Shown piece by piece: positions 4,407 to 33,186 of a stretch of DNA of 36,356 bases; the first letter of the stretch is position 1, and every line of letters starts with the position of its first letter. The stretch comes from a virus. The stretch is from the IMG/VR virus record IMGVR_UViG_3300045988_128427; one strand, given 5' to 3'. The notes under the pieces were generated by a model. The model ran no database searches. It had not been told where the DNA came from and saw nothing but the letters and a program-made list of their open reading frames with translations. The position numbers and the translations under genes were made by a program.

Positions 4407-5111
4407 ATGTTAGAGTTTGGATATTACAACATGAATTGTATGGATGGTATGAAAGAATTCCCGGATAAGTATTTTGAGCTTGCAATAGTAGACCCACCCT
4501 ATTTTTCTGGACCCGAGCGTAGAAACTATTATGGTAGAAGAAAAAGCCCAATAGGGGTGCAAAGAATATACAAAAAAATGAATAACTGGGAAGTTCCGTC
4601 GCAGGAATATTTTGAAGAGTTATTTAGAGTATCGCAAAATCAAATAGTTTGGGGATGCAATTATTTTACATATAATTTTCCACCAGGGCGCATCGTGTGG
4701 GATAAATGTAATGGGAAGAGTAGCTTTTCCGATTGCGAGATTGCATACTGCAGTTTTCATGACAGCGTGAGACTTGTTCGATACATGTGGAATGGAATGT
4801 TTCAGGGAAAGAGCATCGAAGAAGGATGGATTCAGCAAGGAAATAAAAAGCTGAATGAAAAAAGAATACATCCAACGCAGAAGCCTGTGAATTTATATCG
4901 CTGGATACTGCAGAAATACGCAATTCCGTCTGAATGGAAAATATTAGATACTCATGTTGGAAGCGCAAGTAGCTTAATTGCTTTCGCAGAAAATGGAAAC
5001 AGATTTGTGGGATTTGAAGTAGATGAGAGCATGTACAATGTGTCAAAGAGAAGAATGGAGGAGAGAAATCTTGAGAGTAACACTGAAAAATGGAGTTGTA
5101 TTAGAATTTGA
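4407..5111 (+). CDS. DNA methyltransferase, beta-class N6-adenine/N4-cytosine type (orphan)
   Basis: Motif IV IVDPPYFSG lies near the N-terminus. HPTQKPVNLYRWIL follows, and an AdoMet motif I-like ILDTHVGSASSLIAF lies near the C-terminus. No restriction endonuclease gene is adjacent. Confidence 0.9.
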   Translation: MLEFGYYNMNCMDGMKEFPDKYFELAIVDPPYFSGPERRNYYGRRKSPIGVQRIYKKMNNWEVPSQEYFEELFRVSQNQIVWGCNYFTYNFPPGRIVWDKCNGKSSFSDCEIAYCSFHDSVRLVRYMWNGMFQGKSIEEGWIQQGNKKLNEKRIHPTQKPVNLYRWILQKYAIPSEWKILDTHVGSASSLIAFAENGNRFVGFEVDESMYNVSKRRMEERNLESNTEKWSCIRI

Positions 5112-6402: not shown

Positions 6403-6476
6403 TGAAGCGTAGCTCAGTGGTAGAGCACTTGCAAGGCATCTGCAAGAGGTCGGGGGTTCGATTCCTTCCGCTGTTG
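6403..6476 (+). tRNA. tRNA-like element with a non-canonical anticodon arm (centred triplet GCA) and a weak acceptor stem; possibly a degenerate tRNA
   Basis: Canonical D arm (ta gctc agtggta gagc), AGGTC variable loop and T arm (ggggg ttcgatt ccttc). The anticodon arm is 19 nt (cttgc aaggcatct gcaag) instead of 17. The acceptor (tgaagcg / cgctgtt) has only 4 Watson-Crick pairs plus 1 GU pair. Confidence 0.45.
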
Positions 6477-6571
6477 CTCACACGTGACGGTGTGCCCACT
6501 TGTTCGGGTAATGGACAAGAGCTGGTAAGTGCTAAACTTGCATGTTTCTCTTTTCTTTACATTTTATCTAT

Positions 6572-28698: not shown

Positions 28699-29829
28699 TT
28701 ATTCATGAGAGGGCTTGTCTAAACAATTCATACAATTCGAAAGATTCTGAACAATGTTTTCAAAGAAATTATCCATAACATTATCCACTGCAATTCGTTC
28801 ATCTGAAAAGGTATGAGTGTATACTTTTTTCATTATCTGGTCTGTTTTCCAACCACCACGTTCCTGGGCATATTTATCCGGTACACGAAGCTGTGCCATG
28901 ACAGAGGCATTTATGTGTCTGAGGTCGTGAAATGTCATGTGTGGCATATCGGACTCTTCTAATAAGTACTGGAAACGCTTATAGAGGGTGTTATAGGAAT
29001 ATGGTACAAGCACATCGCCAGGTACTTTTTCAATTAAGCTTTTTATATATTCCGGAATCCTGTGTCTGCGGATTCTGGTATTATTTTTTGCTTCTTTCTT
29101 TCTGATATCGTCATTATCCACTTTTACAACTGTTTCCGTGACTGATATATAATTTCCGTCCTTAGAGATAGATTTTGATTTTGTAAGACCACGAATTTCT
29201 GACATCGAGAAACTAAGCCACATAGCAAGTAACACTGGCAGTTCGATGTCTGTGCCCTCGAATACAGCAAAGATTGCATCAGGAGTCTGTAAATCTTTAA
29301 TTAATACCGGAACGGTAGGAAGTTTTACATTGGTATCAATTCCTTGGCAGAAAGCATTTAAAGCTGCACTGATTAAGCCATATTCATTTTTTACGGTCTT
29401 TGGTGAAATAGTTTCTGTTGGTCTTTTGAGGCTCTTTCGCTTGGCTTCACGGTTTACTGCCTCTTGCAGGTATTCCTTATCAACACTTGTAAGATAAGTA
29501 TTCATGATATGTTTAAATCCATTTTTTTGCATCCTTTTGTATCCGGCTATTGTAGAGGGGCTTAAGATACCATCTTTTGAATTAATATACATCTCAATCG
29601 CTTCACCAATCGTGCAGTTTAAGATATTTTTCTTATGTTCCTTTTCAGAAGCCCATTCGGCAGCCATCCGCTCTGCCATTCGCTTGCCTTTTGGACCAGG
29701 TACGTCACAGGTAAATGATTTGTAAAATCGTTTCTGTTTAACAGAGCCGTCTGGCTGAATAATTTCCTCAGTATGACTATAGATCTGGCATCGCCAAGAG
29801 CCGGATGCAAGTTTTCGTGCTGTTGCCAT
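28699..29829 (-). CDS. int: tyrosine site-specific integrase
   Basis: Start taken at the Met of MATARKLASGSWRCQIY (RBS aaaaaggagtg). The track start at 29913 adds 28 unlikely residues. Catalytic elements are SEIRGLT, HDLRH and VYTHT. An arm-binding-type N-terminus is present. Confidence 0.9.
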   Translation of the reverse strand: MATARKLASGSWRCQIYSHTEEIIQPDGSVKQKRFYKSFTCDVPGPKGKRMAERMAAEWASEKEHKKNILNCTIGEAIEMYINSKDGILSPSTIAGYKRMQKNGFKHIMNTYLTSVDKEYLQEAVNREAKRKSLKRPTETISPKTVKNEYGLISAALNAFCQGIDTNVKLPTVPVLIKDLQTPDAIFAVFEGTDIELPVLLAMWLSFSMSEIRGLTKSKSISKDGNYISVTETVVKVDNDDIRKKEAKNNTRIRRHRIPEYIKSLIEKVPGDVLVPYSYNTLYKRFQYLLEESDMPHMTFHDLRHINASVMAQLRVPDKYAQERGGWKTDQIMKKVYTHTFSDERIAVDNVMDNFFENIVQNLSNCMNCLDKPSHE

Positions 29830-30013
29830 GTTATCACTCCTTTTTGGGTATAAAAATAACAGCCAGCTTGGAACAGATGTTCTGCTTGCGTGACTGCTCC
29901 GGAGATGATACAATAATTTTGTTAGGTTAGGAGATTATATGCGTCTCCGGATATTTACTTGTATTTGCCGGTTTCTGTTGGAGCAGGAACCGGTTTTTCT
30001 TTTGTTAATAAAA

Positions 30014-31204
30014 TTAGTATTGATACTGATTTGTATAAGCAAATACTTTATAATCTGCAATGGATGCGCTTGTGATATCTTCCGGAAGAAATACCGGTTC
30101 TAATTCAAATCCAATTTCTTCATCAGGCTGTAAAGTGTTTGCAAGAACAGTCGAAAGCTGACCAATCGGTTCAGCATTTTCATTGAATAAGACCGCAGTT
30201 ACACAAATATCTGTCTGAGCTGCTCCGGTTGTGTTTTTTACTTTTCCGTGTAAGTCAACACTACCCATATCCTTATCGTAAACCTCTGTATTACTTACTT
30301 CTAAGCGAACATTGTCTACTTTCGCAGTGGAAGCATTAATGTGAGGAGTGATTGTAATTCCTTCGGTTGGAGTTTGGTCATCCATAAGTTGTTCTTCGTA
30401 ATAATAACCTTTTTCACCCGGTTCAATTACTTGAGGAGCAGGTGTAAAACTTCCACTGGTTGTATGAATGATTGTTCCATCTTCTGCAGTTAATTCATAG
30501 GAACTGAAATCTAAATACAAATTACTACTTCCGGTATTTTCAATTTCAACAATAGACTGTCCAATTAAATCAGAGATGCTATCCCGATAAAATGAAACAT
30601 TCTTATAAGTAACTTCAAAAGCAGCTTGTTCTTTGGAAGTATTATTTGCGGTGTCAGAGGATGAAGAATCAGAAGTAGCTGTATCACTTGTTCCGGTTTC
30701 TGATTCAGTTGCTGTTTCTGGAGCATCTTTAGAAGTTTGAGTCAATTCAACAGTAGAAGTTGTACCCATTGCTGAGACTTCATAACTAATTTTCCCATTT
30801 TTGTATGTAAATTCTTTGGTATCATCAGTCGATGCAAGCAATGCGGAATCTGTTTTTTCTTTATTCCTATCAGAAGTCCATGAATATTCTTCAACAAATT
30901 CAGTTGGTGCAGTATACGTTCCAGACCAATAAACGGATTTTGTTGCCCCATCATCGGAAATCCAGTTAATTTCGATAGAATCATCAGTTATTGTTGCTTC
31001 TTGATAAGAACCATCTTTATTTTCAGATGCCCACACACCGGTTAGGTCAGTTGGTTCTTTTGCCTCTTCCTCTTTTTCTTCACTTTGGGAAGTTTTAGTG
31101 TTTTCTTTTGTGCTTCCGGAAGAGGAACTGGTTCCGCATCCTACGACACTGACTGATAATGTAGCCAGTAGAAGCATTGTTACAATTTTTCTTTTCATTG
31201 GCAA
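30014..31204 (-). CDS. prophage-encoded surface lipoprotein
   Basis: Signal peptide with lipobox MKRKIVTMLLLATLSVSVVG|C, then S/T/E-rich linkers separating beta-rich domains. It has its own RBS (aaaggag). Confidence 0.8.
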   Translation of the reverse strand: MPMKRKIVTMLLLATLSVSVVGCGTSSSSGSTKENTKTSQSEEKEEEAKEPTDLTGVWASENKDGSYQEATITDDSIEINWISDDGATKSVYWSGTYTAPTEFVEEYSWTSDRNKEKTDSALLASTDDTKEFTYKNGKISYEVSAMGTTSTVELTQTSKDAPETATESETGTSDTATSDSSSSDTANNTSKEQAAFEVTYKNVSFYRDSISDLIGQSIVEIENTGSSNLYLDFSSYELTAEDGTIIHTTSGSFTPAPQVIEPGEKGYYYEEQLMDDQTPTEGITITPHINASTAKVDNVRLEVSNTEVYDKDMGSVDLHGKVKNTTGAAQTDICVTAVLFNENAEPIGQLSTVLANTLQPDEEIGFELEPVFLPEDITSASIADYKVFAYTNQYQY

Positions 31205-31276: not shown

Positions 31277-31305
31277 CAAAAAGACCCTGTATCAATACGA
31301 GGTCT
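31277..31305 (-). terminator. rho-independent terminator (minus strand)
   Basis: Minus strand: stem agacctcgtat...atacagggtct with one mismatch, followed by ttttt. Confidence 0.55.
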
Positions 31306-31381
31306 CTGCATAATAACTTAGAACTGAATAAATGCCCTATAGCCCCTTTAAGGATAAATTAAAAAACTTTCGTATAACGTA

Positions 31382-31409
31382 AAAGACCCCGCATTACTGC
31401 GAGGTCTTT
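31382..31409 (-). terminator. terminator-like hairpin (minus strand)
   Basis: Long stem aaagacc(c)cgc / gcg(a)ggtcttt of about 10 bp. The T-run is short and partly inside the stem. Confidence 0.4.
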
Positions 31410-31533
31410 AATACTGCACGTCAGTTGTCTGAGTGCTTTGTCTTCTATACTGCCGGTCAACGGCTATGTTTTTTTACTAAACTAGTATAACCTCATTATA
31501 TGAAATTGTCAAGAAAAATATACATATTTATAT

Positions 31534-32292
31534 TTATTTTATTCCAGTAAAATTTTTAATGATTTCACGGTCTAATAAATCAAGTTTATCATTAGATAAT
31601 TTTACATTGCTTAGAATATCAAAATTAGTTTTAGGGTCGTATATACGAATTTTACTGATAGTAGTAATCTGGTTTGTTAAAGCAATGCTTCCAGAACGCA
31701 TTTTGGCTACTTCATTCATCATTCGAAAAAGTAATTTTTTCTCTTTATTTGCGACATTTAGTTCTTTTTTGATAGATATAAGTTCGGTAATATCATCTGG
31801 ACTGACATTATCAATTCGTGAAGATAAATCAGTTATACGTATATCTATTTTTTTTCGGGTAGTAGAAATTTTTGAACTTAAACTAGTAAATAGTTCATTT
31901 CCAAGATAAACTTTTCCATCTTTAAGATTTTTGATATTAGTAGTAGATTTAACCGAAGTAAGAGGAAGCACCGTTATTACAGGAGAAGAAATAGGATTGT
32001 TTTTATCAAGTACTACGCAATAATGAAGTCCACCTTCTTCACTTCCAACATTGTAGCCTAAATGAGCTTTAATAATTTCGCCACGTTTATATCTTCGTAA
32101 TTTGGAAGGTATAAATTTGGGTTCAAATTCAAGATAGGTAGTCCAATCTTCGAGCCAGTAACTTAACTTATCAGATTTAGATTGATTTTTGTGATTTGGG
32201 TCATTAATTAATGAGTCTAAATATGAGTCAAGTCTAGCAAGAGCCTGTTTTTTATGAATTGTTAATTCACTTTGAGATAAAATTCTGCCCAT
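31534..32292 (-). CDS. atypical long MazF/PemK-like toxin-fold protein (N-terminal extension plus internal helical insertion)
   Basis: YKRGEIIKAHLGYNVGSEEGGLHYCVVLDKNN...VITVLPLTS and GSIALTNQITTISKIRI match the two halves of the PemK/MazF barrel. They are separated by an insert of about 80 aa. The gene is visibly more AT-rich than its neighbours. Confidence 0.6.
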   Translation of the reverse strand: MGRILSQSELTIHKKQALARLDSYLDSLINDPNHKNQSKSDKLSYWLEDWTTYLEFEPKFIPSKLRRYKRGEIIKAHLGYNVGSEEGGLHYCVVLDKNNPISSPVITVLPLTSVKSTTNIKNLKDGKVYLGNELFTSLSSKISTTRKKIDIRITDLSSRIDNVSPDDITELISIKKELNVANKEKKLLFRMMNEVAKMRSGSIALTNQITTISKIRIYDPKTNFDILSNVKLSNDKLDLLDREIIKNFTGIK

Positions 32293-32400
32293 AATGAATA
32301 AAATCCTTTCTATGAATAGTTTATTGAAAATAATAAATCATCATTTGTATATGTATTTGTAAAAGAATCTTTTACGAATACGTCTTTTCCTCCTTTCAAC

Positions 32401-32859
32401 TCAATCTATCTTCAACACTCCCAGAGTAGGAGTGAAATATACCACATAATTATCCACAGTCGCATACACACCGTACTTGCTCCGGTAGCAGTCAACTGCT
32501 TCTTTCAAATATTCTTCCGTCACATCCAGATATTCCGCTATGTCTGATGCGGACCGGCAGCCATGCTCAAATGCTCTGATAAGTCCCATGAGTCCAATTT
32601 TGAGATTGAATCCATAGAGCCGTGCACGGTATTCTTGTTTCCTGTTCGATACGTCTGTCTGGTCTAAGATGTTTCCGGAAGTTGTGTAGTAGTGTCCGAG
32701 TTCTTCTGCGAGGACGCAGGATTTTTCTGTTTGTGACATTTTTCTTTCAAGTGCAATATTTCCATCAAAGTAAAGTCCTTTTAACCCTTTTACTTCTGAC
32801 AAATCCATTTCAACAATATTCAAGTCTTTATGTTTTGTTTTTAATTCTTCGTAAGTCAA
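32401..32859 (-). CDS. ImmA/IrrE-family metallopeptidase (anti-repressor protease)
   Basis: The HExxH-type motif AEELGHY. The gene lies immediately downstream of, and is coupled to, the XRE repressor gene. TTG start after ggagtgagg. Confidence 0.85.
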   Translation of the reverse strand: MTYEELKTKHKDLNIVEMDLSEVKGLKGLYFDGNIALERKMSQTEKSCVLAEELGHYYTTSGNILDQTDVSNRKQEYRARLYGFNLKIGLMGLIRAFEHGCRSASDIAEYLDVTEEYLKEAVDCYRSKYGVYATVDNYVVYFTPTLGVLKID

Positions 32860-32865
32860 GAAGCC

Positions 32866-33186
32866 TCACTCCTTTGGGCGTGCTGCGACAAGTAGTTTTT
32901 TATATTCCTCTATCTTATTTAGCTCCTCAGGAGTAAAATTTTCTCCATCTTTGTGTGCTGCGGTAGTGGAAGACTCAGTTCTTTCTTCCCAACCCATTAG
33001 TTCTTGTGGAGAAACTTTTAATGCTTTAGCGAATTCTCTTATTTTAGATTCAGCTAAATCAACTTCACCTTTTTCTATTTTTGCGATAGATGACCTATCT
33101 TTATATCCAGTCAGTTCGGCTAGGGAATCTTGAGACATTTTTAATTCCAAGCGTCTTGCCTTTATGTTCTTATACAGGTCAAGCAT
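32866..33186 (-). CDS. XRE-family repressor (ImmR/CI-like)
   Basis: IKARRLELKMSQDSLAELTGYKDRSSIAKIEKGEVD is a classic HTH_XRE. It is divergent from the early operon. Confidence 0.85.
   Translation of the reverse strand: MLDLYKNIKARRLELKMSQDSLAELTGYKDRSSIAKIEKGEVDLAESKIREFAKALKVSPQELMGWEERTESSTTAAHKDGENFTPEELNKIEEYKKLLVAARPKE

Follow-up and report, generated by a model that had tools for sequence, protein, structure and literature searches.

A MazF/PemK-family gene of a temperate phage and the structured RNA beside it: a candidate type III-like toxin-antitoxin pair

How a toxin of the MazF/PemK family might be held in check when no MazE-like antitoxin gene accompanies it is the question raised by a viral sequence of 36,356 nucleotides (nt), IMG/VR record IMGVR_UViG_3300045988_128427 (hereafter the window, meaning this whole stretch), whose minus strand encodes a 252-amino-acid (aa) protein of this family, here called PemK-long, between phage immunity genes and an integrase gene. 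The original prediction, made from the letters of the window alone, saw in PemK-long a solo gene for what may be a single-polypeptide toxin plus sensor. That part of it is not supported, as in each of the 120 unique loci examined a gene for a small structured RNA comes after the toxin gene; the prediction had itself allowed for an overlooked partner, and one had indeed been overlooked, namely an RNA gene and not a small open reading frame (ORF). On balance, the sequence evidence leans towards a type III-like toxin-antitoxin or abortive-infection module in which a genuine MazF-family toxin would be joined to an RNA partner: the PemK-long gene would be the protein half, and the RNA of about 96 nt, whose gene adjoins it on the 3' side and has a strong promoter and a terminator to itself, the other half. 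The small RNA is, on this evidence, probably the antidote of the toxin.

The association of the two genes was followed well beyond the window. In 54 unique downstream regions drawn from phage, IMG/VR and assembly loci, including those of Streptococcus phage Javan166 (44% identity) and Staphylococcus aureus phage B236 (29%), a promoter, one or more hairpin units and a terminator come right after the stop codon of the toxin gene. When a promoter match of at least 10/12 was required within 110 nt of the stop codon, 112 of the 120 unique homologous downstream regions passed and 101 had a terminator as well, whereas among 1224 control regions, taken from behind other ORFs of those loci, the numbers were 66 and 9, respectively; many of the loci are related by descent, such that these counts overstate the number of independent events. 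All 19 regions that failed the strict test were positive by covariance model or by eye, as was every further downstream region that was read or scanned with the model, and no toxin gene was met without the RNA element. Likewise, the 31 distant relatives missed by the covariance model, R1, all combine a promoter and a terminator with one long hairpin and a tail that reads AGAAGAC or AGAAUAC.

Scanned with R1, the 36-kb window yields a single strong match, at the RNA gene itself, and across about 0.98 Mb of loci the matches at E<0.005 all lie on the gene strand just 3' of a toxin gene, bar three; the E-values of the model are rough, its calibration having been shortened. Among the exceptions are loci L069 (2884-2972) and L155 (2854-2939), in which an extra RNA copy stands on the plus strand directly 5' of the toxin gene, besides the downstream copy, in the order hairpins, terminator, ribosome-binding site and ATG, which is the canonical type III order. 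Pattern searches gave a similar picture. A specific pattern found 37 matches in IMG/VR, every one of them 36-96 nt 3' of a PemK-long gene, and a degenerate pattern found 43, with 41 adjoining such a gene. The degenerate pattern also marked 101 stretches in metagenomes: 66 adjoin a PemK-long gene, 20 are hairpin-less, which is the expected chance background, 4 lie at contig edges and 11 fall under none of these headings. Counted over hairpin-bearing metagenome matches, 66/77 are just 3' of a PemK-long gene and 11/77 have another neighbour.

The RNA is built from two hairpins, each followed by AGUAU or AGUAA; the linker ends in AAGAC, and the terminator stem also begins with AAGAC. The two hairpin units share a frame of GC, stem and GC followed by a AGUAUAnAAGAC tail, and they are near-identical direct repeats of 30-33 nt in L055, L085 and L088, having diverged in the window. 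From locus to locus, the RNA architecture follows the toxin lineage. In a curated MAFFT alignment of 21 sequences, with a hand-drawn structure comprising hairpin 1, hairpin 2 and the terminator, 98.9% of the cells are paired and 10 of the 22 pairs have changed on both sides, which none of 500 shuffles matched; partners slid out of place give 31-52% pairing. With 41 sequences aligned to R1, 99.1% of the cells are paired, 18 of the 22 pairs are compensatory and 135 cells have changed on both sides, figures that are biased towards the structure by the fitting of this alignment to the model. Misalignment of divergent rows limited RNAalifold, run independently on a broad MAFFT alignment, to hairpin 1 and the terminator, in which 12 of the 14 predicted pairs covary; the curated core alignment and R1 replaced that broad alignment. 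U-G pairs are common in the R1 alignment, and A-C and other non-standard pairs are rare, which indicates that RNA and gene share a strand. In addition, conservation is higher in the single-stranded tail GCAGUAUAnAAGACA than in the stems, which points to sequence-specific recognition.

No family of Rfam 15 was matched by the RNA of the window or of 21 loci in cmscan searches, permissive scans included; the best chance-level match was to ncr1015, at 27.5 bits against a gathering score of 60. One Rfam entry, RF02913 (the pemK motif), is a candidate structured RNA named after its association with pemK genes; the 311-nt region gave no match to it even at E<=10, and none was found in the 21 loci. 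A small ORF inside the RNA (31359-31460, 33 aa, TTG start) was considered as a peptide antitoxin and rejected, as no Shine-Dalgarno sequence was seen and the substitutions from locus to locus follow base pairing.

Beyond the terminator of the RNA gene lies a decayed second copy of the RNA, reduced to a hairpin remnant and a terminator, whose local alignment scores of 53-57 stand against a shuffle maximum of 38; it suggests that an older cassette was replaced. The two terminator hairpins that had been predicted downstream of the toxin gene are both present, the first being that of the RNA gene and the second that of the decayed copy. In type, the decayed copy resembles the RNA of Blautia ammoniilytica (L098, L215), with GCCUAUAGGGCAU ... 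AUUAUGnGAAGACCUCG and a hairpin mismatch.

On the protein side, the predicted minus-strand ORF with both halves of a PemK/MazF barrel is borne out. Pfam assigns the 252-aa protein to PF02452 (PemK_toxin) at 37.8 bits (cut-off 23.1), phrog_1412 covers its full length (E=9.5e-50), and an identical NCBI protein, present on 385 contigs, bears the name 'type II TA system PemK/MazF family toxin [Blautia stercoris]'. A family profile of 93 members matches solved MazF chains in two separate stretches (E=7e-6), profile positions 69-119 aligning with MazF 4-55 and 202-238 with MazF 69-105; both barrel halves are therefore present, and the barrel is complete but split by an insert. The N-terminal extension and large helical insert that had been described from the sequence each appear as a pair of long helices in an AlphaFold2 model built on the 93-member alignment (predicted local distance difference test score, pLDDT, 97.2; predicted template-modelling score, pTM, 0.89), which also has a C-terminal helix at 234-249. 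The comparison with MazF/PemK structures that had been proposed along with that description was made with Foldseek: the top 50 matches in the Protein Data Bank (PDB) are MazF chains only (probability 1.0, target TM mostly 0.7-0.85), those of S. aureus, B. subtilis and M. tuberculosis included, and the best full-length viral structural match is a 246-aa phage protein (TM 0.72).

The first barrel half holds the GSEEGGLHY loop, with H90 where MazF has its catalytic Arg, and the PLTSxK motif (T112, S113 and K115). E85, G88, P110, S113, S213 and K214 are invariant in the 93 members, and H90, Y91, Q208, T211 and R216 nearly so; the groove and active-site positions that are invariant or nearly so comprise E85, G87, G88, H90, P110, T/S112, S113, K115, S202, Q208, T211, S213, K214 and R216. 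Position 112 is Thr or Ser in 83/93 members, such that the catalytic Thr/Ser after the conserved Pro, which we take to be T48/T52 of MazF, is kept. With these residues, PemK-long looks like an RNA-handling enzyme. The insert is far more variable, with a mean pairwise identity of 0.20 versus 0.51-0.52 in the core and 0.31 in the N-terminal extension and a length of 52-93 aa, and its hypervariability would fit a specificity or sensor role. Pfam gave no match to the N-terminal extension even at E<=10 and weak coiled-coil matches only to the insert, and neither resembles MazE or another antitoxin domain there; the extension was likewise considered as a fused MazE tail and rejected for want of Pfam similarity. 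Together, the two helical hairpins of PemK-long would probably form a four-helix bundle.

The surroundings of the gene agree with much of what had been said of them. No small antitoxin-like ORF had been seen beside the gene, and no conserved small protein ORF adjoins it in the window or in the relatives examined; this, together with upstream neighbours that vary among loci encoding the identical protein (contigs with that protein bear different immunity genes upstream), indicates that there is no adjacent MazE, PemI or Kis gene. A position between the ImmA/ImmR switch and the integrase is confirmed by the minus-strand order immR, immA, PemK-long, lipoprotein gene and integrase gene. The view of this position as a prophage slot for exclusion or defence cargo gains from the relatives, which occupy the same repressor-to-integrase interval in phages of Lachnospiraceae, Streptococcus and S. 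aureus: those at 57-62% identity are directly followed by an integrase gene, of either the tyrosine or the large serine type, and Streptococcus phage Javan166 and S. aureus phage B236 share the order cI-like repressor, PemK-long gene and integrase. Judged by what it carries, this interval behaves as an exchange hot spot for defence cargo. Of the predicted AT-richness, the part that concerns the gene stands (29.4% GC in the ORF versus 39.1% in the window, the 1.5th percentile of 759-nt windows, with 17% GC at third codon positions), and the part that concerns the 3' flank does not, the RNA region having 43.8% GC.

The family is large, and phages of gut Clostridia, streptococci and S. aureus commonly carry it. 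It comprises 1384 protein clusters at 90% identity, nearly all of 230-290 aa, and among representatives at 50% identity 958 match at E<=1e-3 and 188 at E<=1e-30, again almost all of 230-290 aa; the cluster counts and the conserved length show that the family match is not due to chance. Relatives are encoded in at least 384 GTDB species representatives, and the hosts among the matches listed include Coprococcus, Muricomes, Hungatella, Roseburia, Blautia, Lachnospira and Intestinimonas, as well as Oscillospiraceae, Anaerovoracaceae, Streptococcus mitis and Streptococcus suis. In a phage collection, 56 Staphylococcus and 25 Streptococcus records match PemK-long, and the B236-type RNA region recurs at >=98.5% identity in 32 S. 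aureus phage records. Well-studied phages are among the carriers (S. aureus B236, 85, 92, phiMR25 and SA12/SA13; Streptococcus Javan phages), in whose records the RNA goes unannotated and the protein bears the label "PemK-like", "hypothetical" or even "antitoxin MazE-like". The label "antitoxin mazE-like" of phrog_1412 is evidently a mis-annotation; it has been carried into RefSeq phage records (e.g., NC_007064 and NC_028915) despite the toxin fold, and in such records the adjacent RNA is unannotated or its terminator alone is marked. Passing annotations of a "PemK-like phage protein" were found in the literature, but no functional study of the PemK-long protein or its RNA.

If the two genes form a toxin-antitoxin pair, their action may be envisaged as follows. 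The toxin gene would be read in the lysogen together with the immR-immA operon, with which it shares its strand and from which no good promoter or terminator separates it; in the 108-nt upstream spacer, no toxin-gene promoter was found at >=9/12 on the gene strand. The RNA would be made in excess from its near-consensus promoter, and its hairpin units, with the single-stranded tail AGUAUAnAAGAC(A), would bind the protein and keep the enzyme silent, probably at the conserved MazF RNA groove, with the RNA acting as a pseudo-substrate and the two helical hairpins as a clamp. Were the supply of RNA to stop or the RNA to be titrated, because another phage infects, transcription is shut off or the prophage is lost, the presumably stabler protein would be freed; it could then cleave cellular or phage RNA and arrest the cell, whereby the invader would be excluded or cured cells killed. 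An abortive-infection function of PemK-long is plausible. The immA-to-toxin spacer contains a 15-bp AT-rich inverted repeat at 32351-32383, and its length is constant in contigs with different immunity genes. A single consensus RNA unit (5' flank AAAACACAGC, tail AGUAUAGAAGACA) occurs in a 193-kb viral contig (L137, 434-460), and one also occurs in a 181-kb metagenome contig (L228, 725-751), no PemK-long gene being near either. Where a very large phage contig carries a single unit of this kind, it may be a decoy of the antitoxin, by analogy with the pseudo-ToxI of phage TE, or a remnant.

Several observations nevertheless weigh against a toxin with an RNA antidote. The RNA has only two units, and about one third of the lineages have one long hairpin instead; the order in the window, toxin followed by promoter, RNA and terminator, is the reverse of that in canonical type III systems; and the position of the MazF catalytic Arg, which lies in the beta1-beta2 loop and is presumably R25 of B. 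subtilis MazF and R29 of E. coli MazF, is His in 91/93 members and Arg in 2/93, such that RNase activity is not assured. An extra helix of 8-12 base pairs (bp), moreover, joins the 3' part of the RNA to the -10 region of its own promoter; it was found in about 17 Lachnospiraceae loci, where shuffles give about 5 bp, and inspection by eye showed it in streptococci too. This helix could form only in a read-through toxin mRNA, such that the functional species may be either that mRNA or the small RNA. In detail, the -10 hexamer and the first transcribed bases (TATAAUGAAUAC) pair with the segment after hairpin 2 (GUAUUCAUUAUG), the pairing covaries, and in streptococci the 3' strand overlaps the 5' arm of the terminator. 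Two R1 matches also fall on the opposite strand: that in L157 (E=0.0011) overlaps the 3' end of its own RNA and looks like the terminator read in reverse, and that in L172 (2725-2838, 25.9 bits, E=0.009) is some 1.4 kb away from the RNA of that locus. PADLOC has no model that matches PemK-long. Finally, RNA copies exist without a toxin gene, two of them with an intact promoter; those beside Abi_2, DUF3800-like and unknown genes are decayed, the cargo families having been assigned by eye from translations. Given such orphans, the RNA might have a toxin-independent role or be a recombination flank. That the toxin gene was never seen without the RNA, and the RNA sometimes occurs without the toxin gene, is the asymmetry that a toxin-antitoxin pair predicts, and it marks the slot as a cassette-exchange hot spot.

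Other explanations have to be measured against the same evidence. PemK-long could be a self-contained, autoinhibited single-chain toxin or sensor, in which the N-terminal hairpin, the insert or both mask the MazF groove until a phage trigger binds, and the RNA would be a mere terminator or element of the 3' untranslated region. The absence of a protein antitoxin gene, an insert as hypervariable as those of sensor domains and a compact, confident model with four long helices predicted to pack on the barrel are all in keeping with this idea, and fused toxin-antitoxins that sense phage proteins, such as CapRel, are known. Yet it leaves unexplained why a promoter, two covarying hairpins and an invariant single-stranded motif should stand beside genes down to 29% identity and why L069 and L155 should carry extra upstream RNA copies, and the extensions are without similarity to any antitoxin domain, MazE included; we consider it unlikely. 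Alternatively, the pair may be a non-toxic regulatory ribonucleoprotein whose protein binds or processes the RNA, or the read-through mRNA, and thereby tunes lysogeny genes such as the integrase gene, one route for which would be control of termination at the terminator of the RNA. The conserved repressor-integrase position, the His in place of the catalytic Arg, the orphan RNA copies that persist in the same slot beside other cargo and the helix between the promoter -10 region and the RNA 3' part, which in streptococci is antiterminator-like in its overlap with the terminator, would all suit such a role. It is an improbable one, however, for a pair that also occurs with no integrase nearby, outside a prophage lysogeny module, between MoxR/VWA-type genes and a transporter gene (L155), or at the end of a contig, behind a lysin-like gene (L069); between the RNA and int, the window has a lipoprotein gene and a second terminator, and the slot otherwise carries defence-type cargo (Abi_2, PIN and DUF3800-like genes).

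Least probable by far is a type I-like antisense RNA that pairs with the ribosome-binding region of the toxin mRNA and not with the protein. Some type I systems do have a small RNA with its own promoter adjoining the toxin gene, which is the layout seen here, but RNA and gene share a strand and have no overlap, and RNAduplex comparisons of the RNA with the toxin mRNA from -40 to +20 in 72 loci gave a mean z of +0.28, with z < -2 in 2 loci. An antisense regulator of the toxin ribosome-binding site was rejected on this account, as the complementarity is no better than in shuffles. An integrase leader or arm-type site was also rejected, given the integrase-free pairs and the G-U wobbles and compensatory changes that favour a gene-strand RNA. 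A known defence system was set aside, since neither PADLOC nor NCBIfam (whose scan gave no match for the protein) returned anything, and identity with PdpSau, a known abortive-infection protein of S. aureus prophages, was ruled out, PdpSau being an unrelated 278-aa membrane-anchored OB-fold protein. The toxin-antitoxin reading thus remains the one we favour, and the features on which it draws are collected in the table below.

Table. Coordinates of PemK-long, its RNA and related features (in the window unless a locus is named)
Feature	Position	Strand	Basis or remark
PemK-long gene (252-aa MazF/PemK-family protein)	31534..32292	-	ATG start; stop codon 31534-31536; ORF list, Pfam, PHROG
N-terminal helical hairpin, residues 1-66	32095..32292	-	Helices 7-29 and 34-59, AlphaFold2; conserved W46, E57, F60
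First MazF barrel half, residues 67-131	31900..32094	-	Profile alignment to 7bxy and 4hke; column conservation
Inserted helical hairpin, residues 132-199	31696..31899	-	Helices 133-162 and 168-197, AlphaFold2; hypervariable in family
Second MazF barrel half GSIALTNQITTISKIRI and C-terminal helix, residues 200-252	31537..31695	-	Profile alignment, AlphaFold2, conservation
Near-consensus sigma-70 promoter TTGACA-17-TATACT	31484..31512	-	Starts 21 nt after stop codon; same strand as gene; 11/12 match
Conserved small structured RNA, candidate RNA antitoxin, ~96 nt	31381..31476	-	Covariance model R1, 107.9 bits, E=1.6e-20
RNA hairpin 1	31452-31464	-	
RNA single-stranded tail AGUAUAGAAGACA	31439-31451	-	
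RNA hairpin 2	31416-31436	-	
RNA intrinsic terminator	31381-31407	-	
Decayed second RNA copy (hairpin remnant and terminator)	31279..31366	-	R1 21.6 bits, E=0.085; no promoter
Extra-helix sites	L010-L061 (e.g., L013 5800-5935); L001 4700-4830; L168 3688-3825; window 31405-31490		Weak in window
Orphan RNA, promoter intact	L231 1132		Beside PIN/VapBC-like pair
Orphan RNA, promoter intact	L314 1031		Beside lipoprotein gene (homologue of window lipoprotein)
RNA copies by other cargo genes	L133 14166; L283 6156; L219 5956		Abi_2/AbiD/F-like gene (L133), DUF3800-like gene, unknown 147-aa ORF
immR (HTH_3)	32866-33186	-	Upstream of PemK-long gene, co-directional; Pfam
immA (Peptidase_M78)	32401-32859	-	Immediately upstream of PemK-long gene, co-directional; Pfam
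Lipoprotein gene with FxLYD domain	30014-31204	-	Downstream of RNA
Tyrosine integrase gene	28699-29913	-	Downstream of lipoprotein gene

Some further features of the neighbourhood may be recorded here. The lipoprotein encoded between the RNA and the integrase gene has 396 aa, a signal peptide, the lipobox VVGC and a C-terminal FxLYD domain (NF038353, E=4.5e-6), and it is a candidate superinfection-exclusion protein; in L314, its homologue lies directly upstream of the orphan RNA copy. The phage region also contains a tRNA-Cys (GCA) gene at 6403-6477 on the plus strand. In Streptococcus phage Javan166 (L001), the Rfam family Spy779816, a small RNA of S. pyogenes, is matched above the gathering score (76 bits) at 4840-4926 on the minus strand, that is, on the opposite strand between the RNA terminator and the integrase gene.

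Taken more widely, the evidence is about evenly poised on whether PemK-long and its RNA stand for a type III-like toxin-antitoxin or abortive-infection family, very widespread but so far undescribed, in which a bona fide MazF/PemK toxin with a built-in helical module would be paired with a hairpin-repeat RNA made from its own promoter instead of with MazE, would sit between repressor and integrase in the temperate phages of streptococci, S. aureus and gut Lachnospiraceae, and would leave orphan RNAs behind through cassette swapping. The toxins of type III were known to resemble MazF, the textbook type II toxin, only distantly and in fold. Were the wider reading true, one toxin lineage could switch the chemical nature of its antitoxin, another family would be added to the small set of known type III families, and type II MazF and type III ToxN lineages would be directly linked. 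The protein family is abundant (at least 384 species-representative genomes and >1300 protein clusters), genetically tractable phages being among its carriers, and the hypothesis is readily testable in S. aureus and streptococcal phages. If the pair proves to be an abortive-infection system expressed from prophages, it would bear on phage therapy of S. aureus and on phage-host dynamics in the gut.

Among described systems, four invite comparison in addition to type III itself. GajC of type II Gabija is a split MazF with a helical insert and the effector of a validated defence system (PMC13069673); Gabija, however, has GajB, a UvrD-type helicase, as a partner, whereas no helicase gene lies beside PemK-long in the window or its relatives in any context examined, and no RNA partner has been described for GajC. 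The toxic AbiF protein of a Clostridioides difficile prophage is neutralised through direct RNA-protein contact by an adjacent non-coding RNA, RCd22, which has two conserved motifs, and its authors call the pair type III-like (PMC12373285); the AbiF family (Abi_2/AbiD/F) and RCd22 are unrelated to the PemK-long pair, for which they serve as a functional analogue. One relative of the prophage slot, L133, has an Abi_2-like gene where PemK-long would be. The pemK RNA motif exists in Rfam as RF02913 (PMC12627772), and cmscan finds no match between it and the PemK-long RNA. With the type II systems MazEF, PemIK and Kis-Kid, PemK-long shares a barrel homologous in sequence and fold, including the active-site Thr/Ser and the groove residues, but it has 252 aa versus about 110, a His for the catalytic Arg and a barrel split by a 68-aa insert, and there is no gene for MazE, PemI or another protein antitoxin here.

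What defines a type III system is, first, an endoRNase toxin from one of the families ToxN, CptN and TenpN, which have the Kid/MazF core fold in common, and, second, an adjacent tandem-repeat RNA that is processed by and binds the toxin and co-evolves with it, in the order promoter, repeats, terminator and toxin (PMC5086642). PemK-long departs from this definition in that its toxin is a true PemK/MazF protein (PF02452) and not ToxN, CptN or TenpN: searched for membership of ToxN/AbiQ, CptN and TenpN, Pfam at E<=1 returned PemK_toxin and a coiled-coil family only, and a sequence search of the PDB returned MazF relatives only. It also has two helical hairpins of about 135 aa in total, an RNA that mostly lies 3' of the toxin gene with its own promoter, and 1-2 simple hairpin units in place of 2-5.5 pseudoknotted repeats. 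Nevertheless, as in ToxIN/AbiQ, CptIN and TenpIN, a Kid/MazF-type beta core stands beside a small RNA of structured units, here only partly repeat-like, that ends at an intrinsic terminator, and L069 and L155 even show the order repeats, terminator and toxin. Likewise, the type of RNA co-varies with the toxin lineage, as it does in type III systems, and the pair is carried on mobile elements, as are those systems, which have been linked to abortive infection (PMC5086642).

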